The notes beneath the pieces are model-generated. The model did not search any database, was not told the DNA's origin, and saw nothing but the letters and a program-made list of their open reading frames with translations. The translations under genes and the position numbers were made by a program. From the NCBI GenBank assembly GCA_036630325.1, contig CP142732.1, positions 310,001 through 374,000 of the forward strand: DNA of 64,000 nucleotides, written 5' to 3'. How positions within the stretch are numbered: the stretch's first letter is position 1; each line of letters opens with the position of its first letter. The DNA comes from Vairimorpha necatrix (taxonomy: Eukaryota). Positions 15,979 to 33,700 of the stretch are shown piece by piece.

Positions 15979-17225
15979 CACCAGGTTGATTCTGCCTGAC
16001 GTAGACGCTATTCCCTAAGATTAACCCATGCATGTTTTTGATATGGAAAAATGGACTGCTCAGTAATACTCACTTTATTTAATGTATTAAATTAGTATAA
16101 CTGCGTTAAAGTGTAGCATAAGACATATACAGTAAGAGTGAGACCTATCAGCTAGTTGTTAAGGTAATGGCTTAACAAGGCAATGACGGGTAACGGTATT
16201 ACTTTGTAATATTCCGGAGAAGGAGCCTGAGAGACGGCTACTAAGTCTAAGGATTGCAGCAGGGGCGAAACTTGACCTATGGATTTTATCTGAGGCAGTT
16301 ATGGGAAGTAATATTCTATTGTTTCATATTGTAAAAGTATATGAGGTGATTAATTGGAGGGCAAATCAAGTGCCAGCAGCCGCGGTAATACTTGTTCCAA
16401 GAGTGTGTATGATGATTGATGCAGTTAAAAAGTCCGTAGTTTATATTTAAGAAGCAATATGAGGTGTACTGTATAGTTGGGAGAGAGATGAAATGTGACG
16501 ACCCTGACTGGACGAACAGAAGCGAAAGCTGTACACTTGTATGTATTTTTTGAACAAGGACGTAAGCTGGAGGAGCGAAGATGATTAGATACCATTGTAG
16601 TTCCAGCAGTAAACTATGCCGACGATGTGATATGATATTAATTGTATTAGATGATAGAAATTTGAGTTTTTTGGCTCTGGGGATAGTATGATCGCAAGAT
16701 TGAAAATTAAAGAAATTGACGGAAGAATACCACAAGGAGTGGATTGTGCGGCTTAATTTGACTCAACGCGAGGTAACTTACCAATATTTTATTATTCAGA
16801 GAAGATTTTCGATCTGAGAATGATAATAGTGGTGCATGGCCGTTTTCAATGGATGCTGTGAAGTTTTGATTAATTTCAACAAGACGTGAGACCCTTTTAT
16901 TAATAGACAGACACAATCAGTGTAGGAAGGAAAGGATTAAAACAGGTCCGTTATGCCCTCAGACATTTTGGGCTGCACGCGCAATACAATAGATATATAA
17001 TCTTTATGGGATAATATTTTGTAAGAGATATTTGAACTTGGAATTGCTAGTAAATTTTATTAAATAAGTAGAATTGAATGTGTCCCTGTTCTTTGTACAC
17101 ACCGCCCGTCGCTATCTAAGATGATATGTGTTGTGAAATTAGTGAAAACTACTTGAACAATATGTATTAGATCTGATATAAGTCGTAACATGGTTGCTGT
17201 TGGAGAACCATTAGCAGGATCATAA
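15979..17225 (+). rRNA. Microsporidian small-subunit rRNA (Nosema/Vairimorpha type, about 1.25 kb)
   Basis: Starts CACCAGGTTGATTCTGCCTGAC, contains GTGCCAGCAGCCGCGGTAA and TTGTACACACCGCCCGTCG, ends GCAGGATCATAA. Confidence 0.98.
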
Positions 17226-17261
17226 TAAGTTAAATTTAAATTAATTTTAATTATTAAATTT
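17226..17261 (+). other. Internal transcribed spacer (about 36 nt, nearly all A/T)
   Basis: Short AT tract between the SSU 3' end and the 5.8S-like start of the LSU. No ITS2, as expected for microsporidia. Confidence 0.8.
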
Positions 17262-18861
17262 ACCCACACATGGGATCAATAGGATACCATAACGATGAAG
17301 GTCGTAATAGAATACGAAAGTATATTATTTACTTAATTAATATATTTATAATGTATTGATAACCCTTTGAACTTAAGCATATCATTAAAAGGAGGAAAAG
17401 AAACTAACTAGGATTTCTTTAGTAGCAGCGAGTGAACAAGAAATAACCCTCCATTGTAATCCTTAATTGGAGTTGTAAATGGTTTATTCTATTAATTATA
17501 TTTATAGAGAATATTATATTCGTTATTAATAGAATAGAATAATGTACTTGAGTAGAGCTGCTTGGTAGTGCAGTTTGAATAAAGGTAGAATGAAATATCT
17601 AAGGTTAAATATGATGGTATACCGATAGAAAATAAGTACTGCGAAGGAACTTGTGAAAATGTGTGGAGTTTAGCCTTATTTTTAAGGACCCGTCTTGAAA
17701 CACGGACCAAGGAGATTATAATTATAGCAAGATAAAAATTAAATTTTTTAATCTTTATTAACTTGATTAGTTATAATTATAAGACCCGAAACACAGTGAA
17801 CTATACATGTTCTGGTTGAAGATAAGCAACAGTTTATTGGAAGACCATAATCATTCTGACGTGCAAATCGATGATTTAAGATGTGTATAGTGGCGAAAGA
17901 CCAATCGAACTGTGTGGTAGCTGGTTCACAGCGAAATGTCTCTCAGGACAGCAGTTATTATTGTATAGGACATAGATGTAGGACACTGTTATAGTTTTTT
18001 AACTATGAGAAATCTTTAATTCTATGGAATTATATAAATTAAATTTATATAATGAATCTATTGTATAACTAGTGGGCACATGATTGTAAGAATGATGTGC
18101 AAAAAGGGATGAACCTTATGAAACATTAAATATTCTAAATAGTAGATATTATACCATAAATATGATGAATACATTGAGACAGTAGGGCGGTTGTTATGGA
18201 AGTAGAAATCCGCTAAGAAACGTGTTACAACGTACCTACCGAATGTATTATTGTATAAAATGGAAGAAGATTACTACTTTTATGAGATGTTTCTAATAAA
18301 TATTTAGGTAGCTGTGCAATTTGTTTGTATTGAAGTATATATGTGAGTATATATAGAAGAAACAAATGAGCCGATCTTGGAGGCAGTAACAATATATTTG
18401 TATAGATATAGACTAGGGTTTTCAATTATTATTGAAGTGAATCGGTGTTATTTATAAAAACAAAAAAGATTAATAATTCTTTATTAAATTATTATAAGGT
18501 AACTTGATAATGACAGTATATTTCAATAAATTTAAGATAAATGAATTAAATTTAATTTTAACTATGGATTGTCATGATAAGAAATAGTTAATTATATATA
18601 TATATACTTGATAAAAATAAAATAATTTTAACCGTACCTATACCGCATCAGGTGTCTTTGTATCATAACAAATATTTTAAATTAAAGTAAGTAAGGGAAT
18701 TCGGCAAATTAGATCTGTAACTTTGGGATAAAGATTGGCTCTAGCATGCTAGAACTTTTACTATGTAAGGAATCTGACTGTTTATTAAAAACATAGCTTT
18801 TTGTATTTACAAGAAGTGAATTCTGCCCAGTGCATTTATTGTTAAAGTTGTGTAAGCGAAT

Positions 18862-18914
<53 letters not shown>

Positions 18915-19013
18915 TTAATTGGTGACGCGCATGAATGGAGCAACGAGATTCCTACTGTCCCTACTTACAATTTTGTGAAACCACGAGACAAGGGAACGGG
19001 CTTGTTATTTATC

Positions 19014-19045
<32 letters not shown>

Positions 19046-19481
19046 TTAGTATGTTTTAATAAATATTCGGTATATTGTAGAGAGGTGGGAGAAGTATTGT
19101 GAAACCAACTAGTATGTTTGAATATTTATTTATTAGAATATATGGGGAGTTTGGCTGGGGCGGTACAGCTGTTAAAAAGTAACACAGCTGTCCTAAGGTA
19201 GATGAATGATGGATGGTAACCATCAGTTTATTATAAGGGAATAAATCTGCTTTACTTTATACATATGACTGTATTTAGTAGGGAAACCTTGGCCTAGCGA
19301 TCCCAATTACATTCATTATGTATTGGGTGATTGAAAAGTTACCACAGGGATAACTGGCTTGTAGCAGGCAAGCGATCATAGCGACTCTGCTTTTTGATTC
19401 TTCGATGTCGTCTCTTCTGATCATCGTAGTGTATATGTTACGAAGTGTTGGATTGTTCACCCGGTAATGAGGAACGTGAGA

Positions 19482-19523
<42 letters not shown>

Positions 19524-19809
19524 TAAGTATTTTTGAGTGAACTTTGATAGTACGAGAGGAACTCTAAGTGATGACCACTGGTAGTGCGATTAACTATTAA
19601 GTTATGTTGCTTAGCTACGTCGTTTCGATTAAGGCTGAAAGCCTCTTAAGCCTGAAGCGTAGCTCAAAGATATATTTAGGAGAATACTACTCTTTTAAGC
19701 AGAACTGTAAGAATGAAGGTGTATGCCGACATTTTGAGGTTACTGCTTTTTTTGTATGTATAGTAGGTGTTGTATACTATAAGAGATGGTACTTTATATC
19801 TAGATTTGG
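17262..19809 (+). rRNA. Large-subunit rRNA with fused 5.8S-like 5' part
   Basis: GAACTTAAGCATAT, CCCGTCTTGAAACACGGACCAAGG, TAACTATGACTCTCTTAAGGTAGCC, sarcin-ricin loop AGTACGAGAGGAAC. 3' end inferred from TCTAGATTTG and is approximate. Confidence 0.95.
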
Positions 19810-19816
19810 TACCATT

Positions 19817-19878
19817 ACAAGAGAGCGTCTACATCGCGGAGGGCGGGACCGATGTTTTTTAAATAGGTGCAAATTTCT
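19817..19878 (+). ncRNA. 5'-truncated HDV-like ribozyme copy
   Basis: Keeps P2 AGAGA/TTTCT, P3 GCG/CGC, P1 3' strand GGAGGGC and J4/2 GCAAA, but has no P1 5' strand and L3 is mutated (TCTACAT). Confidence 0.65.
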
Positions 19879-20009
19879 AAGTCTTACCAACCTTTTGACC
19901 TGGGCGAGGTCGGGCATGATACTGATGCTGTATTGTTCCGCTGAACTGAGTCGTGTTCTTAAATGGTGAATTAGCCAGGCGTTTTCGTTTTTCATCAGAC
20001 CCATAAAAA

Positions 20010-20078
20010 ACCCTCCACAAGAGAGCGTCCACGTCGCGGAGGGTGGGACCGATGTTTTTTAACTAGGTGCAGATCTCT
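20010..20078 (+). ncRNA. HDV-like self-cleaving ribozyme (complete fold)
   Basis: P1 ACCCTCC/GGAGGGT, P2 AGAGA/TCTCT, P3 GCG/CGC, L3 TCCACGT, P1.1 CC/GG, P4 ACC...GGT, J4/2 GCAGA. Confidence 0.85.
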
Positions 20079-20334
20079 AAGTCTTACCAACCTTCGGCTG
20101 CTGGTTGGTAAGTAGGGTCAGCTATACTCTAGGGGTGGGAGACCCATTGCTGGTGAGAAGAACGCCGTTAACTTTCGAGTAATTCTTCATATTTTTAACC
20201 TGGGAGAGGTTGGGCATGATACTGAAGCTGTATTGTTCCGCTGAACTGAGTCGTGTTCTTAAATGGTGTATTGAACCAGGCGTTGTGTTTTCGTCAGGTC
20301 CGCGAAATATGTAGTCAGAGATGACTAAGGATCT
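20064..20334 (+). repeat. 271-bp direct repeat, left copy (partner 27009-27279)
   Basis: Matches 27009-27279 with two substitutions seen. Contains the ribozyme 3' end, hairpins and a LINE 3'UTR-like segment. Confidence 0.9.
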
Positions 20335-20414
20335 TCAAAAAGAATACCAATGAGTTATAGAAACAAATGCTTTTTGTGTGATGGACCACAAGAAAATTTA
20401 GAACACTTTCTGCT

Positions 20415-20483
20415 ACCCTCCATAAGAGAGCGTCCACGTCGCGGAGGGTGGGACCGATGTTTTTTAACTAGGTGCAGATCTCT
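20415..20483 (+). ncRNA. HDV-like self-cleaving ribozyme at the 5' end of the LINE
   Basis: Same double-pseudoknot: P1 20415-21/20443-49, P2 20425-29/20479-83, P3 20430-32/20440-42, L3 20433-39, GG 20450-51, J4/2 GCAGA 20474-78 with candidate catalytic C at 20475. Confidence 0.87.
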
Positions 20484-20485
20484 AA

Positions 20486-21625
20486 ATGAAGGGTAAAGCA
20501 AGAGAAAGCAGGAGCGAGCTCAGTAGAGCAAAAAGTGACCACTTTGGTGGTCCAAACAACAATTTAGATATAGAAATGTATTTAAAACAACAAACTAAGC
20601 ATGTATATGCTAATAAAAGTTTCCCAAGTGTTACTTTCAAAAATGATGGAGAAATGAAATATTTTCTCAAGAAAATAAAAATTCTCTCGGAAAGAATTAA
20701 TAAAAATGATATTTTTGACACATCAAAAAAAGAAAACAATAAAGATCTTAGTGATCTTAAAAGATACATAGCTAGCACTACTGAATTATTACTGATTCAG
20801 CAGACATATCTGGAGCTCTTCCATGACAAGCTAGAAAAACAAAATATCAAATTAAAAAATTTGATATGAAGGGTAAAGCAAGAGAAAGCAGGAGCGAGCT
20901 CAGTAGAGCAAAAAGTGACCACTTTGGTGGTCCAAACAACAATTTAGATATAGAAATGTATTTAAAACAACAAACTAAGCATGTATATGCTAATAAAAGT
21001 TTCCCAAGTGTTACTTTCAAAAATGATGGAGAAATGAAATATTTTCTCAAGAAAATAAAAATTCTCTCGGAAAGAATTAATAAAAATGATATTTTTGACA
21101 CATCAAAAAAAGAAAACAATAAAGATCTTAGTGATCTTAAAAGATACATAGCTAGCACTACTGAATTATTACTGATTCAGCAGACATATCTGGAGCTCTT
21201 CCATGACAAGCTAGAAAAACAAAATATCAAATTAAAAAATTTGATATGAAGGGTAAAGCAAGAGAAAGCAGGAGCGAGCTCAGTAGAGCAAAAAGTGACC
21301 ACTTTGGTGGTCCAAACAACAATTTAGATATAGAAATGTATTTAAAACAACAAACTAAGCATGTATATGCTAATAAAAGTTTCCCAAGTGTTACTTTCAA
21401 AAATGATGGAGAAATGAAATATTTTCTCAAGAAAATAAAAATTCTCTCGGAAAGAATTAATAAAAATGATATTTTTGACACATCAAAAAAAGAAAACAAT
21501 AAAGATCTTAGTGATCTTAAAAGATACATAGCTAGCACTACTGAATTATTACTGATTCAGCAGACATATCTGGAGCTCTTCCATGACAAGCTAGAAAAAC
21601 AAAATATCAAATTAAAAAATTTGAT
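20486..21625 (+). repeat. Three tandem 380-bp copies of the ORF1 5' end
   Basis: Units start at 20486, 20866 and 21246, each at the ATG. The first two give identical 127-aa ORFs ending at an ATGA stop/start overlap. Confidence 0.95.
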
Positions 21626-22919
21626 TAAAAATAATCTGATGGATGACAGTAATCAATTTACAGAATCAACAAAAAATAAAATTGAGATGATGATTGAGAA
21701 TCACTCAAAAGAATGTGTAGAACAAAAGGATAATAACTCCGATGTTCCAAATGATACCAGTAGCGAAACCCTTCAGTTAGCTACTGGAAACAATGATATT
21801 TCTAAATTAGAAATCATAAATGAAGATGTTTTAATTAATGTCAAAAATATCGTGTCTGCTGTCAAAGTAGAAGAAGAAGATCGATTGTCAGATGATGGCA
21901 AAAGAAAATGTATAGGTGTCTCAAATGCGTCTACAAATATTATAATTAATAAAAATATTAAAACAAAAGATGTTAAGCTAGACTTAGCTTTCATTAATAA
22001 AAAAGCAGTAGTTAGACATCTGTCAACTATCTCTGCTATTATAGCTGGTAAAAGAAAAGCTCCTAAGAATGGAGTCAAGCTTTTCCATATAAACGAAGAC
22101 GGATGGACATCTGTCAAACACACATTCAAGCCTAAAGTCCAGATAGACTTGAAGAAAAACAGAAGTGGTAAAACCACAGATAAAACCAACTTTAATAGAT
22201 TTAAATCACTTAAAGTAGAAACTAGTGGCAATGTAAAAGTGCCCAAAAAGATTAATCATGAAGCTGTAAAGAGAAAGAATATCATTCCTAAAAAAGATCA
22301 TGAAAAGGAAAGATTACAAAATCAGAGAATAAATTTTACAAAAAAAACGAAGGACAGAAAAAATGAGAAATGTCAACAAAAAAGAGTTCCAGTTTTACCA
22401 AAGAAAAACTGGGCCAAAGAGCTATCTGAAGAAGCTCTTATGAAAATTATTAAGGATGGTAGAATTATTTCCAAGTGTAAGTTTAGGATAGCTCTTGTGT
22501 CTGGACTCGGATTGAAAGGGAAACCTCAATCTAGAGACGCTTGGGCAGCCTTAGCTGATGTGGAAAATAAAGATATACCACTTATAAAACAATTTAAAGA
22601 TTCGGAAGTAGTACTTCTGATGATTAGAGAACACGTGGGCCAAAAGGTACTAAGCAAAATTAAAGAAAAGTTCGGAGGTTCTAATATCTGCGATGAAGTT
22701 AATTTCTTCACCGACTTTATGTCTTTAACAAAAACAACTGTTCTAGGAGAGCTGCAAAGACTCTCTGGAACGCATAAAAATTTTGTACCGCTTGTAAAAG
22801 CATGTTGGTACATAACTAAAGAATTAAATAAAGAAAACCCAAACCATGGTTCTTTCATTATTTTAGAAAATATGATGGGTGAGCCTGCCCGAGAATCTAA
22901 GGACTTTAACAATGAATAA
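21246..22919 (+). CDS. LINE ORF1 protein (basic, no recognised domain)
   Basis: 557-aa Lys-rich ORF directly upstream of ORF2 and overlapping it (ATGAATAA). Confidence 0.8.
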   Translation: MKGKARESRSELSRAKSDHFGGPNNNLDIEMYLKQQTKHVYANKSFPSVTFKNDGEMKYFLKKIKILSERINKNDIFDTSKKENNKDLSDLKRYIASTTELLLIQQTYLELFHDKLEKQNIKLKNLIKNNLMDDSNQFTESTKNKIEMMIENHSKECVEQKDNNSDVPNDTSSETLQLATGNNDISKLEIINEDVLINVKNIVSAVKVEEEDRLSDDGKRKCIGVSNASTNIIINKNIKTKDVKLDLAFINKKAVVRHLSTISAIIAGKRKAPKNGVKLFHINEDGWTSVKHTFKPKVQIDLKKNRSGKTTDKTNFNRFKSLKVETSGNVKVPKKINHEAVKRKNIIPKKDHEKERLQNQRINFTKKTKDRKNEKCQQKRVPVLPKKNWAKELSEEALMKIIKDGRIISKCKFRIALVSGLGLKGKPQSRDAWAALADVENKDIPLIKQFKDSEVVLLMIREHVGQKVLSKIKEKFGGSNICDEVNFFTDFMSLTKTTVLGELQRLSGTHKNFVPLVKACWYITKELNKENPNHGSFIILENMMGEPARESKDFNNE

Positions 22920-25900
22920 AGTATCTTTGTTAAAGTCCTGTTATTATAGGAAATTATTTTCCTATAACAAGAGTGATATTTTCAAATCTCTAAATAAAAA
23001 AACGCATAATCCAATTGGATTTACTCAGATTAAAAATACTTTCCAAACGACAACGAGATTGAATAGTCTCAAATATTTTTCTATTAGAAAGAATATGTGG
23101 TGGAAGAAAGTACAAGAACAATATTGTATTGTCAAGATACAAAGAATTCCTTATGGAGTGAAAGATCTCCTCAAAGACTTATGTAAGAAGAACTCTCTTT
23201 TGGAGAATTCCATCATTACAGCAAGAAAGTATAGACGAAGAGACACGTCTTTTACAAAAATAATAGTTGAAAAACTATACGCAAATTTATTGATTAAGAC
23301 AGTTAAAGCTAAAGGCTTTAAAGTTTTAAATGATAATAGAAAAGAACTAGAGAAATCTAGTAAAGTAAATAAAAAGACCAAAGAGAACATAAAACTCTTA
23401 AGTCTAAACATTAATCATCTCTCTAATAAGAGAGAAGAACTTGAGTTTCTTCTTAAGAAGGAGAAACCAGAAATTATGTGTTTACAAGAAACTTGGAGAC
23501 AATCTACAAGACCTTTAAAACTTGAAAAATACACTACAGTTGAAACACCTAGTGGTGGAAAAAATAAACCAGGATTAATAACTCTGGTTAGAAATAATGG
23601 AGCGATCAGATGTTCCAAAAAAGGAACCGACTCAAACATTCTGCAAACTGTAGTTGAGTTTAGTTCAGCAGGCAAATGGATTAAGTATTTAGTCTTAAAT
23701 GTCTACATACCACAAAACAAGGATCTCAAAAGGGAGACCTTGGCTAGATTATTTTCTCTTTTAGAAAAAGAGAATTTCAGAAATAACTATAGTGAGATCA
23801 TAGTGATGGGAGATATGAATATGCAGAGTTCTAGTCTCAAGAAAAAATTAAATGTAGTTGGTTTGCCAGTTACAATAAAATATAACAGCAACGATGGTAC
23901 AAGGATCCTCAAAGATGGTAAAAGATCTAAGAGGAAAATTGATACCATCTTTCGACTAAAAAGTAATGATAATGAGAAGATCATTATATCCAAGTCTTGG
24001 GTATTAAGTGATCACTTAGTGCTCAAAAGAAGTATTAAACTTGCCGTTGATAAGATCTCCGATCAACTAGTTTATGATAAGAAAATGCTGGAAAATCCAA
24101 AAGTGATTAAAAAGCTAAAAAAGAAGTTGTGTAATCAACAATTAAACATGAATAATCTCCCCGAGATTATTCAGAAAGTTTGTACATCTTTGAAGATTTA
24201 CAAAAAGAGAAGAGTCCATACTGGACTTACAATGAGATGGAGATATTTAAAAGTCTTCAAAGAAAAACGTCTAGCAGCAAGAGCTGTTATGAAAAATTAC
24301 AATGAAATCAACTCAATTAGATTCGAATATCTCAAAAAGAGAGTAGACGAAACTAAAAAGTTGATTCGCAAAGATAGATCGAAACTTTGGGCTTTAAGAG
24401 GAATAAAGCTCTTTAAAAGTAACAGATCCCGAGAATTCTGGCAATGGCTGAAAAATAGAAGTGTTTCCATTCGTTTGGATCAAGTGGCTCTAATTGACCA
24501 CAATAAGCTTCTTCAGACTTGCCGAGCAAAGAAGCTAGAAATAGCAAATAATTTTTACGCTGATTTGGCGTCAGAGAATGATATAGATGTCAATGTCTAT
24601 GATAAAGTAGATCTTGTTGATCTTCCCCCAGAGATAACAGATGAAGAATTTCTATCCGCACTGAAGAAATGTGGAAATAACAAAGCTGCCGGTCCTGATG
24701 AGATTCCAACCGAGCTATACAAATACTTACTGACTAGAGCAGTAGAAGATAAATTCTTTAAATTCATGCTACATGAATTTAATAAATATATTTGTGGAAA
24801 TAGTACTCCTGAATATTGGAGCATGGCAAACATGATTTGCCTTCACAAAAAAGGAGATGAGACAGATCTGAATAATTATAGGGGAATCTCCTTAATTAAC
24901 ACAATTAGTAAGATCTATCTCAAGATAATAAATGACAGGTTAACTCAATTTGTCGAAGAACAAGATATACTCTCTAGATACCAAGCAGGATTCCGAGCAG
25001 GTGAAGAGTGTATGAATCAGATTACATCTCTACTAGAAATAGTGAGAAGAAGAGAATTCAGAGGCTTGAACACAATAATGTGTTTCATTGACTTTGAAAA
25101 AGCTTATGATAATGTAAGTCATGACTTATTATTTGAAAAGCTTACAAAACTTAATATCCCATTGTATTTAATCAATACAATAAAGGATATTTATAAATAT
25201 ACCACCATGCGTGTGAAAATTGGTGGTGACACGTCAAGTGGTTATAGCTACAGAAAAGGAGTGAGACAAGGGTGCCCTTGTTCTCCAATGCTGTTCAATA
25301 TATTCATCAATGATATTTTTGACGGCATAGAAGGAGTTTTGATCCCAAGATCAAATACGAGAGTTCCGGGACTGATGTTCGCAGATGATATTGTTGTCTT
25401 CGGAAACAACATTGATGATCTTAATAATAAGATCAATAGAATTTCAAAGTGGGCAGTTAATAACAGAATGAAGATTAACTGCACAAAAAGCGGAGTATTA
25501 GAATGGAATGCTCATTCTAACATACAAGAATTCCGAAGTTTATATTCTCTCAGTACAGACTTTGGTGTGATTGAAGAAGTCACTGAATACAGATATCTAG
25601 GTGTCTTAATTAAAAGAAACACGCTAGAAGAACACTTGGTTAAAGACGCAGCAATGCGTGGCAAGAAAGCCTTGGACGCCTTGATGCCCAAGTTGATGAA
25701 TAGCAGCATCAATCTCTACTTCAAGGCGATCTTAATAAAATGTGTACTAGTACCCACACTAATGTATGGCAGTGAATTGTGGGGAATGTCAAGTACAAGA
25801 GCAGGTAAGATTAACAGGATCTTAAGAAAATCTATCAGAATGATATTCAAAAGAGTATTAGTTCCACTAGATAGAGTAATGGACGAGTTCAGTATCGAAC

Positions 25901-26604
25901 GAATTCATATACAAGCAGCTTTGAGTAGATTCAGAGCATACAACAAGTGGAAACACAATAAGACAATCATATCGGATATAATCTCAATTAATCCGAAAGA
26001 AAGAAAAACTACCTGGTGTTCAAGAACACAAAGATGGTTAAAACGATTTGTTGGCAACGAATACGAATCAAGTGATAGTAGATTTATCACTACAAAAATA
26101 ATTGATGTACTAAGAAGTCGAAGAACTCTAAATACTTCTTTAGCTGCATCAATAGCAAACCAATATGACATAAGAAATTCACAAATAAAATATGTCATGA
26201 ACAAAATAAACAATAGAAAAATTAGAACATATACTAGATTGAGATGTAATCTAGTAAAGTGGTCCTCAGCAATAGCATATTCAAAAAGAATACCAATGAG
26301 TTATAGAAACAAATGCTTTTTGTGTGATGGACCACAAGAAAATTTAGAACACTTTCTGTTGGAGTGCGTCTGTTTTACTGACATTAGAACATCTTTTGAA
26401 AATAAACTGCCTCTACTGACTTGTTCAAAAACAAATATCCGAGAAAAAACCAAACAACTCCTTGGTAATAAAATCGGACTAAAAAATAACCCAGATAAGA
26501 TAAAAGAACTTTGTTGGACTATAGAGTTCTTAGATAGAATGGTTGTCTCTAGAAGAATTATATTTGAAAAGAAACTTAAAGAGATAACAAAACAGGATAA
26601 TTAA
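22912..26604 (+). CDS. LINE ORF2: AP endonuclease, reverse transcriptase, C-terminal CCHC finger
   Basis: SLNIN, CLQET, NVYIP, MGDMN, SDH (APE); FIDFEKAYD, GVRQGC, FADD (RT); CFLC...HFLLEC. First ATG is 22912 (track start 22879 is GTG). Confidence 0.95.
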   Translation: MNKVSLLKSCYYRKLFSYNKSDIFKSLNKKTHNPIGFTQIKNTFQTTTRLNSLKYFSIRKNMWWKKVQEQYCIVKIQRIPYGVKDLLKDLCKKNSLLENSIITARKYRRRDTSFTKIIVEKLYANLLIKTVKAKGFKVLNDNRKELEKSSKVNKKTKENIKLLSLNINHLSNKREELEFLLKKEKPEIMCLQETWRQSTRPLKLEKYTTVETPSGGKNKPGLITLVRNNGAIRCSKKGTDSNILQTVVEFSSAGKWIKYLVLNVYIPQNKDLKRETLARLFSLLEKENFRNNYSEIIVMGDMNMQSSSLKKKLNVVGLPVTIKYNSNDGTRILKDGKRSKRKIDTIFRLKSNDNEKIIISKSWVLSDHLVLKRSIKLAVDKISDQLVYDKKMLENPKVIKKLKKKLCNQQLNMNNLPEIIQKVCTSLKIYKKRRVHTGLTMRWRYLKVFKEKRLAARAVMKNYNEINSIRFEYLKKRVDETKKLIRKDRSKLWALRGIKLFKSNRSREFWQWLKNRSVSIRLDQVALIDHNKLLQTCRAKKLEIANNFYADLASENDIDVNVYDKVDLVDLPPEITDEEFLSALKKCGNNKAAGPDEIPTELYKYLLTRAVEDKFFKFMLHEFNKYICGNSTPEYWSMANMICLHKKGDETDLNNYRGISLINTISKIYLKIINDRLTQFVEEQDILSRYQAGFRAGEECMNQITSLLEIVRRREFRGLNTIMCFIDFEKAYDNVSHDLLFEKLTKLNIPLYLINTIKDIYKYTTMRVKIGGDTSSGYSYRKGVRQGCPCSPMLFNIFINDIFDGIEGVLIPRSNTRVPGLMFADDIVVFGNNIDDLNNKINRISKWAVNNRMKINCTKSGVLEWNAHSNIQEFRSLYSLSTDFGVIEEVTEYRYLGVLIKRNTLEEHLVKDAAMRGKKALDALMPKLMNSSINLYFKAILIKCVLVPTLMYGSELWGMSSTRAGKINRILRKSIRMIFKRVLVPLDRVMDEFSIERIHIQAALSRFRAYNKWKHNKTIISDIISINPKERKTTWCSRTQRWLKRFVGNEYESSDSRFITTKIIDVLRSRRTLNTSLAASIANQYDIRNSQIKYVMNKINNRKIRTYTRLRCNLVKWSSAIAYSKRIPMSYRNKCFLCDGPQENLEHFLLECVCFTDIRTSFENKLPLLTCSKTNIREKTKQLLGNKIGLKNNPDKIKELCWTIEFLDRMVVSRRIIFEKKLKEITKQDN

Positions 26605-27008
26605 TATGAATAATTAAAAACAATAAAATCTAGAAATGGAAGAAAGAGATGTTATTTTACTAACAAGAAAACTTATATTTAATTATATTTGACCTGGGAG
26701 AGGTCGGGCATGATACTGATGCTGTATTGTTCCGCTGAACTGAGTCGTGTTCTTAAATGGTGTATTGAGCCAGGCGTTTTCGTTTTTCATCAGACTCATG
26801 AAAGTGGGTCTCTAGTCATATTATGACTAAGGATGTATCCTATGGGAACAAACTTTTCTCCTACAAGCGAGGCCGTTAAGGTATGCTGGCGTGTAAACGC
26901 ACTTATTGATGATTTTTTCTTTATTAGTGGAGTTTTTGGTGGCTTGGAGGCTTTTCTTCGTTTTGCTGATTCTGTCTTTTTTTTACAATAAACAATTTTA
27001 TTTTTTTT

Positions 27009-27279
27009 TAGGTGCAGATCTCTAAGTCTTACCAACCTTCGGCTGCTGGTTGGTAAGTAGGGTCATCTATACTCTAGGGGTGGGAGACCCATTGCTGGTG
27101 AGAAGAACACCGTTAACTTTCGAGTAATTCTTCATATTTTTAACCTGGGAGAGGTTGGGCATGATACTGAAGCTGTATTGTTCCGCTGAACTGAGTCGTG
27201 TTCTTAAATGGTGTATTGAACCAGGCGTTGTGTTTTCGTCAGGTCCGCGAAATATGTAGTCAGAGATGACTAAGGATCT
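27009..27279 (+). repeat. 271-bp direct repeat, right copy
   Basis: Matches 20064-20334. Continues as a diverged LINE 3'UTR copy to 27426 and resumes after the LTR insertion at about 30419-30448. Confidence 0.9.
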
Positions 27280-27426
27280 GTTACCTACGGGAACAAATTT
27301 TTCTCCTACAAGCGAGGCCGTTGAGGTATGCTGGCGTGTAATCGCAATTATTGATGTTTTTCTGGTTGGTGGAGTTTTTGGTGGCTTGGTGGCTTTTCTT
27401 CGTTTTGCTGATTCTGTCTTTTTTAC

Positions 27427-30418
27427 TGTGGTATAATATCTACCACATGGATCATAAGTAACCAATAGGACAACAACACGTCAACGATGTTTCTATCACA
27501 TCTTGAAACACGACGTCTATTGGTCTATCATGAAACAATATATTCTTATTGGTTACCAACAACTATAAATAAAGAAATTATGAACATTAATATGATGCAC
27601 AAGAAATCTAATACGCTCTCCTATCCTTCACAACAGGGCAACGACGCCTCAAATAAAACTATTTACACTAAACAAAACTCTACCTTGGGAATCAACGGTT
27701 CTAATAACCGTAGCATCTTAGAATGCTTTCTTGCCTCTGGCACAATTCCCGGCAATTACGCCAATTTGAGCTCAAATGGCATTAAAGGTAAAAACGCAGT
27801 TACAGCTGATAACAAACATCATTACGCGGAATTCAAAAGAATAGTTGAAGGAACAGACGTACCCATCATCGAACATATACTCAAAATATTTAATATAAAA
27901 ACCGACCTAACAACTGCAGGTCTCAAAGAGTTCGAAACTCTTTCCGAGTATAATAAGTGGAATGACACACAAGCCGGTCAAATCTACCATAGTCTAATCT
28001 ATGATTCCACATATAAATCAAAATTAACAAATAAAAGTTATAAAGCATTAAGAAAAGAACTTCTTAATATACTATACCCCAAAACACAACACCGAATAAT
28101 CTCTCAGAAACTTGATAATATTAAACAGTGCAATTACTTTACCATAAATGAATACATGGATGAAATTAGTAAAGAATTAGAAGGATACACTCATATTAAC
28201 GAACTTTCTCGAAAAGAATTAGAACGAAAACAAGAAGAAATATTCTTTAGAGGATTAGGCAAATACACAACAATTAAAATAGCCGACCAGAAACTTAAAT
28301 CGGCGTTATTTGAAGAAATTATACAATTCCTAGTAGACCTTGAAGAAACTATTTTAGCACAGTCAACAGAGACAAGTCAACGTGCTGTAAAAGACATAGG
28401 ATTTACCAAAACTACAAATAACTTTACAAGCAAGAAGTGGTGCAAGTATCATAACTCCAAATTCCATAACACCAAAGATTGTTTGCTTCATAAGAACACC
28501 CCATCTAACGATAATAAAAATCTTATTATATCGGAACAAAAAACTGATAGTCATGAAGGCATTAAAATCAATGGGAAAATTAATGACACTATGTTACAGT
28601 TATTCGTGGACACAGGGGCTACATGCAATTATATACATGAGAACATTGTCAATATATTAAAACTGCCAATATTTGAAACAAAACCACTTACTATGGTATT
28701 CGGCAATGGTACAAAAGAAACAACTAATAAGATAGTCGAATCAAGATTAGATATCAGTGGTAGAACATTTTTGATAAAGTTTTATGTATTACACAAAATT
28801 CCAGAAGATATAATTTTAGGTTATGAATTCCTCGCTGCAAACGACGCAGTGTTAAACATTAAAAAGAAAATTATTATTGTGGACAAAGGAACGATAATTC
28901 CATTCATTGGTGTCGAAAAATCATCAGAAGAGATGCTAGATGAAGTATTAGCAGAAAATACTTGTCTAACCATTAAAAACAAAAATTTTCATATTAAGGG
29001 GGCAGATAATATTGCTGCGGACTCCCTATCGCGATGCCTCATATCTCAAGCAACATCGCTAAAAGTAGAGTATGACAATGCTGTAAGAAGAGCTTGCGCG
29101 TCAAACAACGACGCATTACTAATAAATGACAAAGGTAAACTAGAAGTTAAACATGACAAGATCAAGTCGTTTCTTAAGACTATACACAAAATATCAGGAC
29201 ACCGAGGGGTTTCAACGCAGTATAACAATATAAAAAATTATATTTACGTTAAAGATGCTCTGAAGAACATAGCAAAAATAGTCCATAAATGTAACATTTG
29301 CAGAAACTATAAGATTATTAATAACAAGAAACAACAAGAAGTAAGAATGAACTCCGACAAGCTATACGAACGAATCTCAACGGATATATTTGGGCCTTTT
29401 CAATATTATACTCCCATTCCTAATTCCGAAAAGAGGACAGGATATATCTTAACAATAACAGATATATATTCAAGGGAAACACAGTTAGTTTTTCACAAGC
29501 AAATTAAGACACAAGAACTTATAGACGACGTAGAATATTGGATTTCTAGTAGAGCAAAACCAAAGCATTTGATCTCAGATAACGGACGGCAATACACCTC
29601 AACCGACTTCACTAATTACCTTACGGACAAGGATATAAACCATATTCTTATACCAACGTATACACCTAGATCCAATGGTATATCAGAGAGAATTAATCAA
29701 ACCATTGCTTTTATCATATCTATTAATAAATATAGGAATATTTACGACACCGTCAAAGAAGCAGAGAACACATTAAATATCAATTATAATCGAGGTATTG
29801 GAACTTCTCCCTATCTCTTAACGCACAAAAAGGATTTCTTCGATATCGAAAATAAGCTTCAAAACTTTAGAATAAATACAAAGAATTTATCGTACACTCC
29901 AAAGTTTAAAGTGGGAGATATAGTATATAAGCGAAATCTAAAGGCAGGAAAACTCGATCGTAAGTATGGACATAAACAAAGCATAGAAGAAGTTGGAAGT
30001 AAAGGGAATTGGGTTCGTCTAAAGAATGAAGAATCTTGGACGCACGTCCGAAACCTAAAGTGCTAGTCGAAGGTGGCAGTATGTGGTATAATATCTACCA
30101 CATGGATCATAAGTAACCAATAGGACAACAACACGTCAACGATGTTTCTATCACATCTTGAAACACGACGTCTATTGGTCTATCATGAAACAATATATTC
30201 TTATTGGTTACCAACAACTATAAATAAAGAAATTATGAACATTAATATGATGCACAAGAAATCTAATACGCTCTCCTATCCTTCACAACAGGGCAACGAC
30301 GCCTCAAATAAAACTATTTACACTAAACAAAACTCTACCTTGGGAATCAACGGTTCTAATAACCGTAGCATCTTAGAATGCTTTCTTGCCTCTGGCACAA
30401 TTCCCGGCAATTACGCCA
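27427..30418 (+). mobile_element. Non-autonomous Ty3/Gypsy element lacking RT/RNase H (element C)
   Basis: 337-bp LTRs 27427-27763 and 30082-30418, identical by eye, TSD TTTAC, purine tract GAAGGTGGCAG before the 3' LTR. Confidence 0.95.
27487..30066 (+). CDS. Gag-protease-integrase polyprotein with in-frame loss of RT and RNase H
   Basis: Gag similar to element A, FVDTGA protease, then directly HIKGADNIAADSLSR, HKISGH...CNIC and SDNG...SER integrase. No YxDD motif. Start codon uncertain (several ATGs in the LTR). Confidence 0.88.
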   Translation: MFLSHLETRRLLVYHETIYSYWLPTTINKEIMNINMMHKKSNTLSYPSQQGNDASNKTIYTKQNSTLGINGSNNRSILECFLASGTIPGNYANLSSNGIKGKNAVTADNKHHYAEFKRIVEGTDVPIIEHILKIFNIKTDLTTAGLKEFETLSEYNKWNDTQAGQIYHSLIYDSTYKSKLTNKSYKALRKELLNILYPKTQHRIISQKLDNIKQCNYFTINEYMDEISKELEGYTHINELSRKELERKQEEIFFRGLGKYTTIKIADQKLKSALFEEIIQFLVDLEETILAQSTETSQRAVKDIGFTKTTNNFTSKKWCKYHNSKFHNTKDCLLHKNTPSNDNKNLIISEQKTDSHEGIKINGKINDTMLQLFVDTGATCNYIHENIVNILKLPIFETKPLTMVFGNGTKETTNKIVESRLDISGRTFLIKFYVLHKIPEDIILGYEFLAANDAVLNIKKKIIIVDKGTIIPFIGVEKSSEEMLDEVLAENTCLTIKNKNFHIKGADNIAADSLSRCLISQATSLKVEYDNAVRRACASNNDALLINDKGKLEVKHDKIKSFLKTIHKISGHRGVSTQYNNIKNYIYVKDALKNIAKIVHKCNICRNYKIINNKKQQEVRMNSDKLYERISTDIFGPFQYYTPIPNSEKRTGYILTITDIYSRETQLVFHKQIKTQELIDDVEYWISSRAKPKHLISDNGRQYTSTDFTNYLTDKDINHILIPTYTPRSNGISERINQTIAFIISINKYRNIYDTVKEAENTLNINYNRGIGTSPYLLTHKKDFFDIENKLQNFRINTKNLSYTPKFKVGDIVYKRNLKAGKLDRKYGHKQSIEEVGSKGNWVRLKNEESWTHVRNLKC

Positions 30419-30599
30419 TTTACAATAAACAATTTTATTTTATTTTTAACTCAAATAATTCTGGTCCAGGGCATGGGTTATATCTACCTCTTACAAGCAA
30501 AGAAAAACATGAATTTTTAATGTCCGGTGGGGTTTCTTATCTTTGCTAATTCGGTTTTTTACACTTTAAATTTTTATTTTATTTTTAGGATTACAGACC

Positions 30600-30795
30600 A
30601 CGGGAATAACTTTCTACACTACAGGAGAGGCCGTGAAGGCATGCTGGCATATAAGGCAATTATTAATGATTTTTCTTTTTTATGATAAGTTTTTATCTAC
30701 TCGGAGCTTTTCTTTCTTAGCTGATTGTGTCTTTTTTGCATAAATATTATAATTTTATTTTTTACAATAAACATTTTTATTTTTATTTATTTTTT
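30600..30795 (+). repeat. Older degenerate copy of the LINE 3'UTR end
   Basis: GAGGCCGTGAAGGCATGCTGGC, GCTGATTGTGTCTTTTTT and TTTTACAATAAACATTTTTAT match motifs in 26844-27009. Confidence 0.7.
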
Positions 30796-33700
30796 GGTAA
30801 TTTAGTTTTAAAAGTAAAATTAAAAATTTTGTTGGTTGGTTTTTTTCGAGGACTTTGTTGTTTAACGAACGTTCCATGAATTTAAAAAGTATAAAAAGAA
30901 AAAAATTATCAAAAATTATGAAAGGGTCAGAGTCTAGATATCAATGTTCATGACACAGTAAAAGCATGGGGCTATTATATGATGCAATGTATACTACAAA
31001 TGAAATCTGAACCAGTTCATATTAAGATATGTCTTGTTTTTTCAATTTCTCATGTATATCAGATTATCTCTTTATGCGTCGTTGGTAGCCTAGAAAACTT
31101 TAGAACTATTCTTAAATATAAAAAATCAACTTATGCGGATTTATGAAAGTTGCTTTTTTCTGTATTAGATTTTCAAAATTTTATCCAGTTTATGTCTTTG
31201 AATAATCATCTTTTTCCCCCTTGATGTTTAAAATCAATTTTCAATTCATTTTTCAAATTAGAGTATTGAATTTCTTTTATTTAAAACAAACTCTTCAAAA
31301 ATTAAGAACTCATAAAAACTATTTTCCGTGATATTTTAGATCATCATATATTTACGTGATATTCTTGTGGAACGTTAGATGTAGTTATAGCCCAAAAATA
31401 ATGTTTTTTTTTTCCAAACAAATACTCAATATCGTACATAATGTCTTTCATTTACTTTCTTGTACATCCAAGAAATAGCAGCTAACTACGAATAAGCCTT
31501 TAGTAATGGCACCAGTAATTATTTTTTGTAACTGTTTATGTAGACCTTCAAATATTGCATTTCTTCAAACATTCAAGCCTTATTTCAAAATCATTTAAAT
31601 ATCGATATTATCCACATAATTCCTCCTGCCGAATGTTTTCAATATGACGAATTTTTCTTTTCAGTGCTTCATTTTTACGTCACATTACACTCATCTGTAA
31701 TTATTTTACAAGGGTACGTTAGTTAAGTATAATTCACCAACGTGCTTCATAGATAATAATAAAAATGCCGTAAGAGTCTATTTGGCCCATTTCTATATTA
31801 TCATATTTTATAAGTATTAGGAAACATAATTAAGCCTTTAAATTCATGTTATTAAAGAAATTTGTTTTACTAACCTTACACTGGATAAAAAATTATATAT
31901 GTATTTTTCAAGCTCTAATAAGAAATTAAAGAGCTCTATCACATAGGAATTACAAAATTAAGAGAATCGTAGCTCTATTTACAATATAGTTATCTATCAA
32001 TTTGTTTTACATTATTTCCTGAATGATAATAGAAAAAAATGGAATCTGGGGGTTCTTCTAATATATAAAAATCGAGGTTTTTTTTTGCTAGATTAAATTA
32101 GGATGGATTGCAAAAAAAAATGATACTTAAATATTCTTGTAAAAGAATTTCAAAAAACTATGATCGTGTACGCTTAAACAGAATTAATTATTGTTTTTGA
32201 TTTTTGACTCTAAAATTACAAAACAGTAAAAAATTACATGAAAACAAAAACAACAAAGTAAATTTTTGGAGCATAGAGTCGAAACACAAGTTAAATACCC
32301 AAAGGCATACTAAAATACCTTTATGTCTGTTTTAAAGGTGAATTACATAATGTAATTAATTTTTAAACATGACTTAATTATATATTAACTTATTTGCACA
32401 AGATGTTTTATTAGTGTGCTAGTTTTTTTAGGTTCAATTCAAAGTTTAATGAATTGTTCCCAAAGAAAAAGATTTTACATATAGTTAATATTGTAAATTA
32501 TGCCTGCTTTATTTATGTTTAGGTATAGTTGTATGATCGAATAAGAATATTCAATAATTTATTGATTTTTTGTTTTTGGTGAATACATAGATATTTAGAA
32601 TATTTCTGTAGGACTGATTTTGTTCATTATGTTAAAAATACGTAGGGCATATTATTTATGCACTAATATTTATGCGAACATGCAATCATAAAAGTTGAAA
32701 CAAACTAATGAAAAGATTATAAAAAATATAAGTGATATTTGCCGAAAATGAAGTTTAAATATTTTATAAAAAAATTGTGGAAGAATACCCATAAGAATTT
32801 AAAGTAATAGTTGTAAAAACATACAAAATCGTTTAAATAAAAACAATTTGTAGCCTTGTAAACAAGATGATTGCATATAATTACATTTGAAAAAAAGATA
32901 TGTCACAACCCTTTTCATATACTAACACTAAATTTGGCATTTAAGAGTAATGGAGGTTTTTTGCAAGGAAAAGGTTCTCTTTCTCACAATTGCATTGTAG
33001 TCTTTTGGCTGTTGCATTTTTATGAATATCGATCAAAAGTAATAGTTATGATTTTTTATTTAATAACGTTGACTGTTATTGTATTCTATATTAAGCCCAA
33101 CATTATTACTGCAATGAATAGCTTTCTTGTCTTTACACAGATTGTTAGATTTTGCTACCGATTTTATTGAATATCTATCTGTTTTATACAAATATATGAC
33201 GGGAGCTCATCAAAACAAGATTTTACATTCCTCCTGCCCAAATCGCGATAGTGTCTGGGTTGAATTCAAACGGAAGAATTAAAATTATCCGTTAATAAAA
33301 ATATTCTAAAGAGCATTTTGGCATATTGGCCATTATATGTTCGAGTAACGACATTAATACATACAGAGTAGAGGTGTCTTAATTCTTTAAATGTTGATCT
33401 TTCTGTTTTTATGTAAAAAATCTTAGAGAGTATATTCTTAGATAATTTTCATTAGATTTAAAAAAAAGAAACATATTCCATCATTATAAATTTGGGAGTT
33501 GAAACAGCGATAGGGGTTTTATCATGTTGCCACAGATTGCGTCTTATATTCAAATCTCTAATATAATGCGGGTTGTTTATACTATATAAGAACATTTATG
33601 TTAATTTTGAACTATCCAAATCTTAACAAATATCTCTAATTTCTCAAATTATCACTTGTCTAATACAAAAAAATTCATCTTCTCCATCTTTGATATTGTG

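Follow-up and report, generated by a model that had tools for sequence, protein, structure and literature searches.

The window analysed here, a stretch of 64,000 nucleotides from Vairimorpha necatrix, carries rRNA genes on its forward strand, to which all coordinates below refer. The SSU rRNA gene, of the microsporidian type, lies at 15979-17225 (Rfam RF02542, 1057.6 bits) and is followed by the LSU rRNA gene at 17340-19810, which RF02543 matches over 17340-19868 (1329 bits). The LSU match is a single unbroken hit of 2529 nt, with no kilobase-scale insertion within it; this continuity is what the analysis shows on the first-pass statement that the classical R2 site in the LSU is empty. Where the LSU gene ends is uncertain, within a range from 19771 to ~19816: the match of the archaeal LSU model stops at 19771, and that of the eukaryotic model is drawn out to 19868 and reaches into the first of the element copies described below. 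The first-pass annotation had placed the start of a series of HDV-like folds within about 10 nt of the LSU 3′ end, on the rRNA strand. The adjacency and the strand hold, but because the LSU end is not fixed the gap amounts to anything between ~1 and 46 nt, and the nearest fold, at 19817, is dead; it lacks the 5′ strand of P1 and is changed in its core, so that the array opens with a dead remnant. An Rfam scan of the window found no further rRNA operon facing this one tail to tail within 44 kb.

From the LSU 3′ end to 30795, at least seven pieces of one LINE family are stacked on the same strand, and no further pieces of this family were found elsewhere in the 64-kb window. The central piece (C, 20415-27008) is a full-length LINE with a ribozyme head, two ORFs, and a 3′UTR with a T-rich tail (26605-27008). 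ORF1 (21246-22919) encodes a protein of 557 aa of no recognised family; it had no Pfam or NCBIfam match, was blank in the protein atlas, and gave an uninformative single-sequence structure model (pLDDT 38). ORF2 (22912-26604) encodes 1230 aa with an APE endonuclease at residues ~158-370, a reverse transcriptase (RT) at ~560-905 and a C-terminal CCHC motif (C1135, C1138, H1147 and C1152), and is matched in Pfam by RVT_1 (7.5e-39) and Exo_endo_phos (1.9e-05). Residues 158-904 match human L1 ORF2p (E 1.9e-32), invariant columns add to the evidence, and the order of an N-terminal APE endonuclease followed by RT is that of an APE-type LINE. A Pfam search found no RNase H domain in the LINE. The nearest relatives of ORF2 are unnamed proteins, 59% identical to it, and a protein of Nosema granulosis labelled 'LINE-1 ... 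like' (42%). The earlier description of this element as an intact APE-RT LINE stands in that ORF1 and ORF2 are open and both the APE and RT domains are present, but it has to be amended ahead of ORF1, where three tandem 380-bp units, 100% identical to one another, occupy 20486-21625 and begin with an ATG that lies 2 nt behind the ribozyme. Units one and two each encode a 127-codon ORF that ends in an ATGA overlap, and because of the tandem the ORF1 start is present in two additional 127-codon copies ahead of ORF1 itself. This perfect threefold repeat could be an assembly artefact.

The remaining pieces are short or truncated. Piece B (20010-20334) is a short non-coding element that runs from the ribozyme head through ~115 nt of its own sequence, including a 10-bp hairpin (20083-20112), to part of the 3′UTR. 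It is identical to piece D at 269 of 271 positions. The first part of D (27009-27426) enters the ribozyme near position 55 and lies directly against the LINE tail, and its own tail (30424-30448) agrees with that of the LINE at 29 of 29 aligned bases, with one 1-nt gap. At this locus D has the complete tail and cut 5′ end that target-primed reverse transcription (TPRT) would give, and B is without a tail. The two parts of D are separated by an RT-less Ty3/gypsy-type LTR element (27427-30418), a later insertion with identical 337-bp LTRs and the target-site duplication TTTAC (27422-27426 and 30419-30423). The window as a whole is rich in transposable elements, with many other retroelements besides this one. 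Piece A (19817-20009), the remnant nearest the LSU, is a short element with a cut 3′ end, in which the ribozyme begins at position 8 and joins straight to a 3′UTR segment (equivalent to 26688-26803, 111 of 115 positions identical). Compared with B it differs at 6 of 76 positions, including the C and G of L3; L3, P1.1 and P2 are all altered, and its fold is dead owing to the loss of the first seven bases together with these core changes. That A is instead a decayed full-length copy was rejected, as 5 of its first 7 bases differ from the intact heads, whereas the remaining 62 aligned fold positions show 6 changes. Beyond D lie piece X (30449-30589), a diverged, strongly 5′-cut piece from the 3′ end of a related element, closed by a similar T-rich tail, and piece E (30590-30795), an older, 5′-cut relative of the 3′UTR (~76% identical) whose T-rich tail is followed by unrelated flank. 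Complete tails are present on four pieces, C, D, X and E.

The head and the 3′UTR are common to the coding and the non-coding members. B, D and A have both without the coding part, as SIDE-type elements do, and the 3′UTR hairpins differ between the LINE and the B/D version by two compensatory double changes that keep the pairing.

Both complete 69-nt HDV-like folds lie where the first-pass annotation had put them, at 20010-20078 (copy 1, the head of B) and 20415-20483 (copy 2, the head of the LINE), and each of the helices it had proposed (P1 ACCCTCC/GGAGGGT, P2 AGAGA/TCTCT, P3 GCG/CGC, P1.1 CC/GG) is made of standard pairs in both copies. The two differ at one base (position 9, in J1/2), and 23 of 23 pairs are standard in each: 7 in P1, 5 in P2, 3 in P3, 2 in P1.1 and 3 + 3 in P4. 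P1, with 7 of 7 pairs in both intact copies, opens at the predicted cleavage site, 5′ of A20010 and A20415, and its first base is also the first base common to elements B and C. P2 forms the pseudoknot that closes the fold after J4/2, with 5 of 5 pairs between columns 11-15 and 65-69. The 3-bp P3 carries a 7-nt L3 with the conserved C and G, and P1.1 joins L3 to the bases that follow P1. The 5-nt J4/2 contains an unpaired C that is the proposed catalytic residue (C20070 and C20475). Folding by minimum free energy finds P1, P3 and P4 unaided. The cleavage-site pair is A-U in these heads and not the G.U wobble that is typical of HDV and CPEB3, and that is common, not universal. The fold parameters match the R2 consensus, which the available text of PMC3774820 gives as a P1 of 6-7 bp, a P2 of at least 5 bp, a variable P4, a J1/4 of 0-2 nt and a catalytic C.

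The core motif occurs three times in the 64-kb window and in none of 100 shuffles. A search of both strands with a core descriptor (the pairings, the U and G in L3, and a compact span), as the first-pass annotation had proposed, matched only the two intact heads, and gave no match in any of 30 first-order Markov randomisations. A descriptor built from the pairings alone is weak, with a mean of 0.53 matches per randomised 64 kb and at least one match in 13 of the 30. The covariance-model search proposed alongside went against the fold: no Rfam family reaches its gathering score, the best for the heads being CPEB3, with 15.6 bits (E 0.38) where 35 are required, and with the HDV-type models unable to score the fold's two pseudoknots. 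These sub-threshold scores and chance pairing matches would also suit a head that is a conserved 5′UTR element, for instance an internal promoter, a binding site for a protein or an element acting in translation, which looks HDV-like by chance and does not cleave itself. The same reading is favoured by the lack of covariation within the lineage, where no pair is changed on both sides among three copies, two of them near-identical, and by the 77 nt of L1Tc, which serve as promoter and ribozyme according to the available text of PMC3383444, so that such heads can have other roles.

We nevertheless regard a non-cleaving 5′UTR element as improbable. The active-site stretch P3-L3-P3′ is one base off the Rfam consensus of the mammalian CPEB3 ribozyme (RF00622) and has the same spacing to P1, which can itself be aligned to that consensus with every pair changed on both sides. 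The likeness stops at P4 and P2, which differ from those of CPEB3, and the CPEB3 ribozyme is intronic, not a retroelement head. In viral and prokaryote contigs the active-site core pattern has at least 240 matches, and among the matches listed four combine it with a 7-bp P1 and a P2. Three of these four are compact (55-66 nt) and have an active-site stretch identical to that of our heads, with entirely different P1 and P2 sequences and a G.U or U.G cleavage-site pair; one of them (L316) scores 38.7 bits with the Rfam HDV-F-prausnitzii model (E 7e-4). The fourth (L170), 183 nt long and GC-rich, was set aside as chance-like. Also at odds with a chance resemblance, P1 starts at the very first base in both full-length copies, and the decay of piece A follows the fold: the only copy without a P1 5′ strand, and hence unable to form P1, is also the one changed at the L3 C and G. 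These are conserved sites that, according to the Fig. 6 legend of PMC3774820, are changed in an R2 ribozyme inactive in vitro.

The boundaries of the elements bear on the same question. B and C are alike from exactly 20010 and 20415 onward and unlike upstream, and ahead of each lies a different, unrelated element fragment with a cut 3′ end. In front of C this is an 85-nt fragment of the ORF2 3′ region (20328-20412, equivalent to 26274-26358, 97.6% identical), separated from the LINE head by 2 extra nt (20413-20414). Similarity that starts at the predicted cleavage site, behind unrelated 3′-cut fragments, is the pattern expected from a self-cleaved RNA template. The sequence supports the view that both the APE-RT LINE and its short derivative begin exactly with an HDV-like fold, right after the LSU and on the rRNA strand. 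We consider it likely that the locus holds a non-LTR retrotransposon family whose autonomous member and short, internally deleted derivatives are all headed by a 69-nt, HDV-like, predicted self-cleaving ribozyme. In such a family, the element would be transcribed from upstream within a longer RNA, and the ribozyme would cut 5′ of its own first base to set the exact RNA 5′ end. Translation would begin at the AUG 2 nt behind the fold, and the RNA would be copied into DNA by TPRT, guided by the structured 3′UTR and the T-rich tail. At the LSU 3′ end, four or more insertions with tails (C, D, X and E) are stacked head-to-tail, and template jumps are the probable source of the fragments ahead of C (A, B and the ORF2 piece).

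The stacking itself might have another origin, as a by-product of T-rich-tail targeting or of unequal exchange after a first copy had landed beside the rRNA gene by chance. At every junction between tail-bearing pieces the next element comes straight after a T-rich tail, no duplication can be recognised, and the region has also taken the LTR element and holds many others. We find such an origin rather unlikely, as it leaves unexplained why A, B and the ORF2 piece, although they end internally, each run into an exact element 5′ end, and it is at odds with the enrichment of specific LINEs at microsporidian rRNA operon tails that is described in the available text of PMC12449221.

Alternatively, the ribozyme-headed LINE family may be a specialist of the rRNA operon's 3′ terminus, which would extend the interpretation above and does not exclude it. 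Its endonuclease would nick at the LSU end or immediately behind it, the rRNA 3′ end would be restored by the duplicated target, and expression would depend on Pol I read-through, amounting to an R2-like life that leaves the rRNA intact. The concentration of the seven or more same-strand pieces, four with complete tails, between the LSU and 30795, and nowhere else in 64 kb rich in transposable elements, points in this direction, as does the position of the oldest-looking pieces, X and E, farthest from the LSU. The entire array is moreover flanked by a candidate target-site duplication, TTTGGTA..ATT, with its upstream copy at 19805-19816 and a possible partner at 30793-30802; it is a weak candidate because its T-run merges with the element tail and the copies differ by a 2-nt indel. 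Against specialisation, repeated insertion at a fixed site with duplication would leave copies of the duplication between the stacked elements, where none are seen, and the T-rich simple-sequence tails could themselves be the preferred target. The association is seen at one locus only, in a window so full of other retroelements that it may be a general sink for transposable elements. We hold specialisation for the rDNA tail to be plausible, if tentative.

A similar position has been reported in other microsporidia. In Hamiltosporidium tvaerminnensis and Gurleya vavrai, LINE repeats are found where two rRNA operons meet tail to tail, for the most part at the 3′ tails (PMC12449221, 2025, available text). 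We liken the V. necatrix elements to these by position; however, the window contains no inverted second operon, and the missing tail-to-tail partner within 44 kb also weighs against specialisation for the operon terminus. The word 'ribozyme' has no occurrence in the available text of that article, and co-transcription with rRNA followed by self-cleavage would offer a testable mechanism for LINEs at microsporidian rRNA operon tails. It is possible, though in our view doubtful, that an APE-type LINE lineage of microsporidia has, independently of R2, combined insertion that restores the LSU end, Pol I read-through and HDV-like self-release, and that this combination is the mechanism behind the co-location of LINEs and rRNA tails.

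LINEs with HDV-like heads, among them R2 and L1Tc, are known from animals and trypanosomatids. A case in microsporidia would widen this range to relatives of the fungi whose genomes are extremely reduced. The first-pass annotation knew of no microsporidian example, and the matches of a full-text literature search are off-topic by title; an HDV-like LINE head has apparently not been described before in microsporidia. The novelty is narrower than this suggests, as LINEs at microsporidian rRNA operon tails are already published (PMC12449221, available text), and HDV-like heads on APE-type LINEs are already known from L1Tc (PMC3185411, available text). A metagenome scan with an ORF2 alignment kept 80 loci with a best-segment identity to ORF2 of ~23-48%, none of them a close relative over the full protein length. 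No convincing HDV-like fold was found at these distant LINE loci, where the core descriptor gave one unconvincing 151-nt match, and an Rfam search of 20 of the 80, those with the longest stretches upstream, returned no hits.

R2 and L1Tc are among the closest known systems. Like the R2 5′ ribozyme, which is processed from a 28S co-transcript, the heads described here are associated with rDNA on the rRNA strand, and in some R2 lineages cleavage falls at the first base of the element, as predicted here. R2, however, places its insertions within the 28S gene and has only one ORF, whereas the V. necatrix LINE has two ORFs and an N-terminal APE, the LSU is matched as one continuous hit, and the elements lie past its 3′ end. 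R2 carries a restriction-like endonuclease. Membership of the R2 clade was rejected on this domain architecture. In the L1Tc/NARTc pair of Trypanosoma cruzi, one HDV-like ribozyme (L1TcRz) stands at the 5′ end both of an APE-type LINE and of the non-autonomous element that accompanies it, as in the LINE and short elements here; this is a likeness by description, in a different host phylum, and the L1Tc head is also an internal promoter. Copies of L1Tc are dispersed, and the element is not known to be linked to rDNA. According to the available text of PMC3185411, L1TcRz cleaves at +1 of the element.

The short elements and the joints in front of the heads have their own parallel in R2. R2 SIDEs consist of a ribozyme head and the 3′ end of the autonomous element, and foreign RNA pieces before full-length R2 5′ ends have been attributed to template jumps (PMC3414825, available text). 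The plan of head plus 3′ end is the same here, except that the short element adds ~115 nt of its own. The template-jump chimeras of R2 carry snRNA or tRNA, whereas the pieces before the 5′ ends here are fragments of the family's own RNAs, and these apparent chimeras, with their joints exactly at the predicted cleavage site, would be in-genome records of the RNA 5′ end.

The two 69-nt HDV-like folds described in the first-pass annotation are present at exactly the coordinates claimed, 20010-20078 (copy 1) and 20415-20483 (copy 2), and differ from one another at a single base, position 9, in the joining segment J1/2. When the structure is written out with both of its pseudoknots, 23 of 23 proposed pairs are standard in both intact copies (7 bp in P1, 5 bp in P2, 3 bp in P3, 2 bp in P1.1 and 3+3 bp in P4), and the proposed catalytic cytosine is C20070 in copy 1 and C20475 in copy 2. 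The pair at the cleavage site is A-U in both intact copies, and a G.U wobble was not found there. Plain minimum-free-energy (MFE) folding recovers P1, P3 and P4 unaided, while the energy of the fold is not better than that of shuffled sequences, as expected for a pseudoknotted RNA. The 19-nt core occurs three times in the window and is absent from 100 shuffles. The descriptor search that had been proposed as a check combined the pairings with a 7-nt L3 loop (U first, G sixth) and a compact span; applied to both strands, it matched exactly the two claimed sites, at 20010 and 20415, which are copies of one sequence, and none of 30 first-order Markov randomisations contained a match. A descriptor of the pairings only gave 0.53 matches per randomisation, with at least one match in 13 of 30, and the pairings alone are not convincing as evidence for a ribozyme. 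In the proposed covariance-model search, the best match, to CPEB3, reached only 15.6 bits against a threshold of 35 (E 0.38), with Rfam models in which pseudoknots are not scorable. The CPEB3 model aligned P1, P3 and L3 in register with the fold; P3-L3-P3′ differs from the CPEB3 consensus by one base, and all P1 pairs are changed on both sides. The window copies themselves show no covariation: none of their pairs carries a double change.

The boundaries of the elements provide a second line of evidence. Similarity between pieces B and C, the short element and the LINE headed by copies 1 and 2, starts exactly at 20010 and 20415, and the upstream DNA is unrelated; in both, the element therefore opens with the first base of P1, where cleavage is predicted. 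Full-length non-LTR copies extend as far as the 5′ end of the template RNA, and the shared boundary is thus the genomic trace expected of self-cleavage. Piece A, which begins at 19817, is without the P1 5′ strand, with 5 of 7 bases differing there. Its 76-nt alignment with B contains 6 more changes, of which two fall on the L3 C and G and a third weakens P1.1. In the Fig. 6 legend of PMC3774820, an R2 ribozyme that is inactive in vitro is changed at these two conserved L3 bases. From the sequence, we consider it probable that the LINE head truly is a self-cleaving ribozyme and that it sets the element's 5′ end.

The LINE, piece C, spans 20415-27008 on the + strand, and its start ATG at 20486 lies 2 nt past the fold. 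This ATG opens the first of three 380-bp tandem units (20486-21625) that are 100% identical. Because 380 is not divisible by 3, units 1 and 2 yield 127-codon ORFs that repeat the ORF1 N-terminus and end in ATGA stop-start overlaps; ORF1 at full length (557 aa) begins in the third unit, at 21246. The triplication either reflects duplication in the very recent past or is an artefact of the assembly. Family and protein-atlas searches matched ORF1 to no protein family. ORF2 (1230 aa) overlaps ORF1 by 8 nt, encodes an APE endonuclease and a reverse transcriptase (RT), and carries a C-terminal CCHC, which its relatives share without variation. Of the relatives with a solved structure, human L1 ORF2p is the best (E 1.9e-32, residues 158-904). 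The nearest in the databases are two proteins without names (59% identity), whose contigs of 5772 and 5947 nt are each about the length of one element; a LINE protein of Nosema granulosis follows at 42%. The 3′UTR ends in a T-rich tail. The fold lies within the R2 ribozyme consensus parameters; unlike R2, however, the LINE encodes two ORFs and an APE endonuclease and is not inserted in the LSU, whose match is continuous, and R2 membership is thereby ruled out.

Several short elements accompany the LINE. B (20010-20334) and D (27009-27426 and 30424-30448) are identical at 269 of 271 positions; in both, the ribozyme head is followed by about 115 nt of unique sequence and then by a version of the LINE 3′UTR (87% identical). 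The part restricted to B and D contains a perfect 10-bp hairpin (20083-20112 and 27028-27057), for which an Rfam search of 19780-20560 returned no match to the B copy. A represents a second short variant without a 100-nt insert (B 20093-20192), and its 3′UTR part is nearer that of the LINE (111/115). When the LINE/A type is compared with the B/D type, two 3′UTR hairpins (within 26690-26830 in the LINE and 27141-27275 in D) stay paired, with one pair turned from GC to AU and another from AU to GC, a pattern that would fit an RNA structure read by the reverse transcriptase. Such derivatives follow the same pattern as the R2 SIDEs (short internally deleted elements) (PMC3414825), and as NARTc with L1Tc (PMC3185411).

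The array lies behind the single rRNA operon that Rfam identifies in the 64-kb window, with a microsporidia-type SSU rRNA at 15979-17225 (+) and an LSU rRNA in one continuous match at 17340-19868 (+). The LSU 3′ end differs by model, the eukaryotic one running to 19868, stretched over A, and the archaeal one to 19771. Ahead of the LSU start given by Rfam, within 17226-17340, there is a 5.8S-like motif. In microsporidia the 5.8S is fused to the LSU, which this motif fits, and the real LSU 5′ end is therefore probably earlier than 17340.

All array pieces lie on the rRNA strand. A, cut at both ends, is followed by B (5′ end exact, 3′ end cut), an 85-nt ORF2 fragment with 2 extra nt, C (5′ end exact, tail complete), D (starting at about ribozyme position 55, tail complete), and X then E, which are short, more diverged and each complete in the tail; E is about 76% identical to the LINE, and unrelated DNA resumes from 30796. 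D is split by an LTR element (27427-30418) with identical 337-bp LTRs, a 5-bp target site duplication, TTTAC, and an 859-aa ORF with gag, protease and integrase domains and no RT; it is a recent insertion of an internally deleted Ty3/gypsy-type element. C, D, X and E retain the whole tail and all but C are cut at the 5′ end, as target-primed reverse transcription would give. A, B and the ORF2 fragment break off internally at the 3′ side, and behind each of them an element begins at its exact 5′ end. Most simply, these three would have arisen by template jumps, in which the reverse transcriptase would reach the 5′ end that self-cleavage leaves on its template RNA and then jump to other family RNAs; in vivo template jumps are described for R2 (PMC3414825). 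The motif TTTGGTA..ATT occurs at both array flanks (19805-19816 and 30793-30802, the two differing by 2 nt), and if it were a target duplication, the upstream copy would keep the LSU 3′ end. As evidence this is weak, since the T-run passes into the tail, and the array contains no copies of the motif between stacked elements, which argues against simple repeated fixed-site insertion with duplication. New copies may instead have inserted into the T-rich tails of earlier ones.

Specificity of the family for the tail of the rRNA operon is a tentative proposal that we regard as slightly more doubtful than credible. In favour of a real preference, the pieces stack behind the LSU in a common orientation, and neither DNA nor protein comparison found a family piece in the rest of this TE-rich window. 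One further trace of a LINE, a decayed and unrelated RT remnant, lies at 38781-39607 (-), on the strand opposite the rRNA; it belongs to a different LINE family and is 21-33% identical to LINE proteins over most segments. LINEs at microsporidian rRNA operon tails were also reported in 2025 (PMC12449221), in a paper in which the word ribozyme does not occur. However, this is a single locus, the window holds no inverted partner operon, and the region is a general retroelement sink, with Ty3/gypsy-type ORFs at 599-4363, 8419-9708, 27487-30066, 50223-53051 (-) and 60312-61760. An R2-like reading, rDNA-tail specialisation with putative Pol I read-through expression, is possible. Ruminski et al. are said to have described HDV-like ribozymes in further LINE clades in 2011. 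A full-text literature search combining microsporidia with HDV-like returned matches on other subjects, as judged by title. An rDNA-TE review lists only MITEs for microsporidia (PMC10946416), and microsporidian TE surveys mention LINEs without ribozymes or rDNA (PMC4202319, PMC3486916). The element is best classed among the LINEs with a ribozyme head and SIDE-like derivatives, here in a host phylum new for them.

The case for a ribozyme also draws on the same active-site core in viral and prokaryote contigs, where 4 of the 240 matches listed (a raw count) have a 7-bp P1 plus P2. Three of these, all on viral contigs, are compact folds of 55-66 nt with P1 and P2 sequences wholly different from the LINE head: L316 10120-10186 (+), L314 29-94 (+) and the 55-nt fold at about L222 6704-6758 (-). 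The L316 fold scored 38.7 bits against Rfam HDV-F-prausnitzii (E 7e-4), under the threshold of 44. The L222 fold is surrounded by the tRNA genes of a large array, with a GOLLD-like RNA match close by (79.5 bits, under its threshold), and is reminiscent of the tRNA-associated HDV-like ribozymes of phages.
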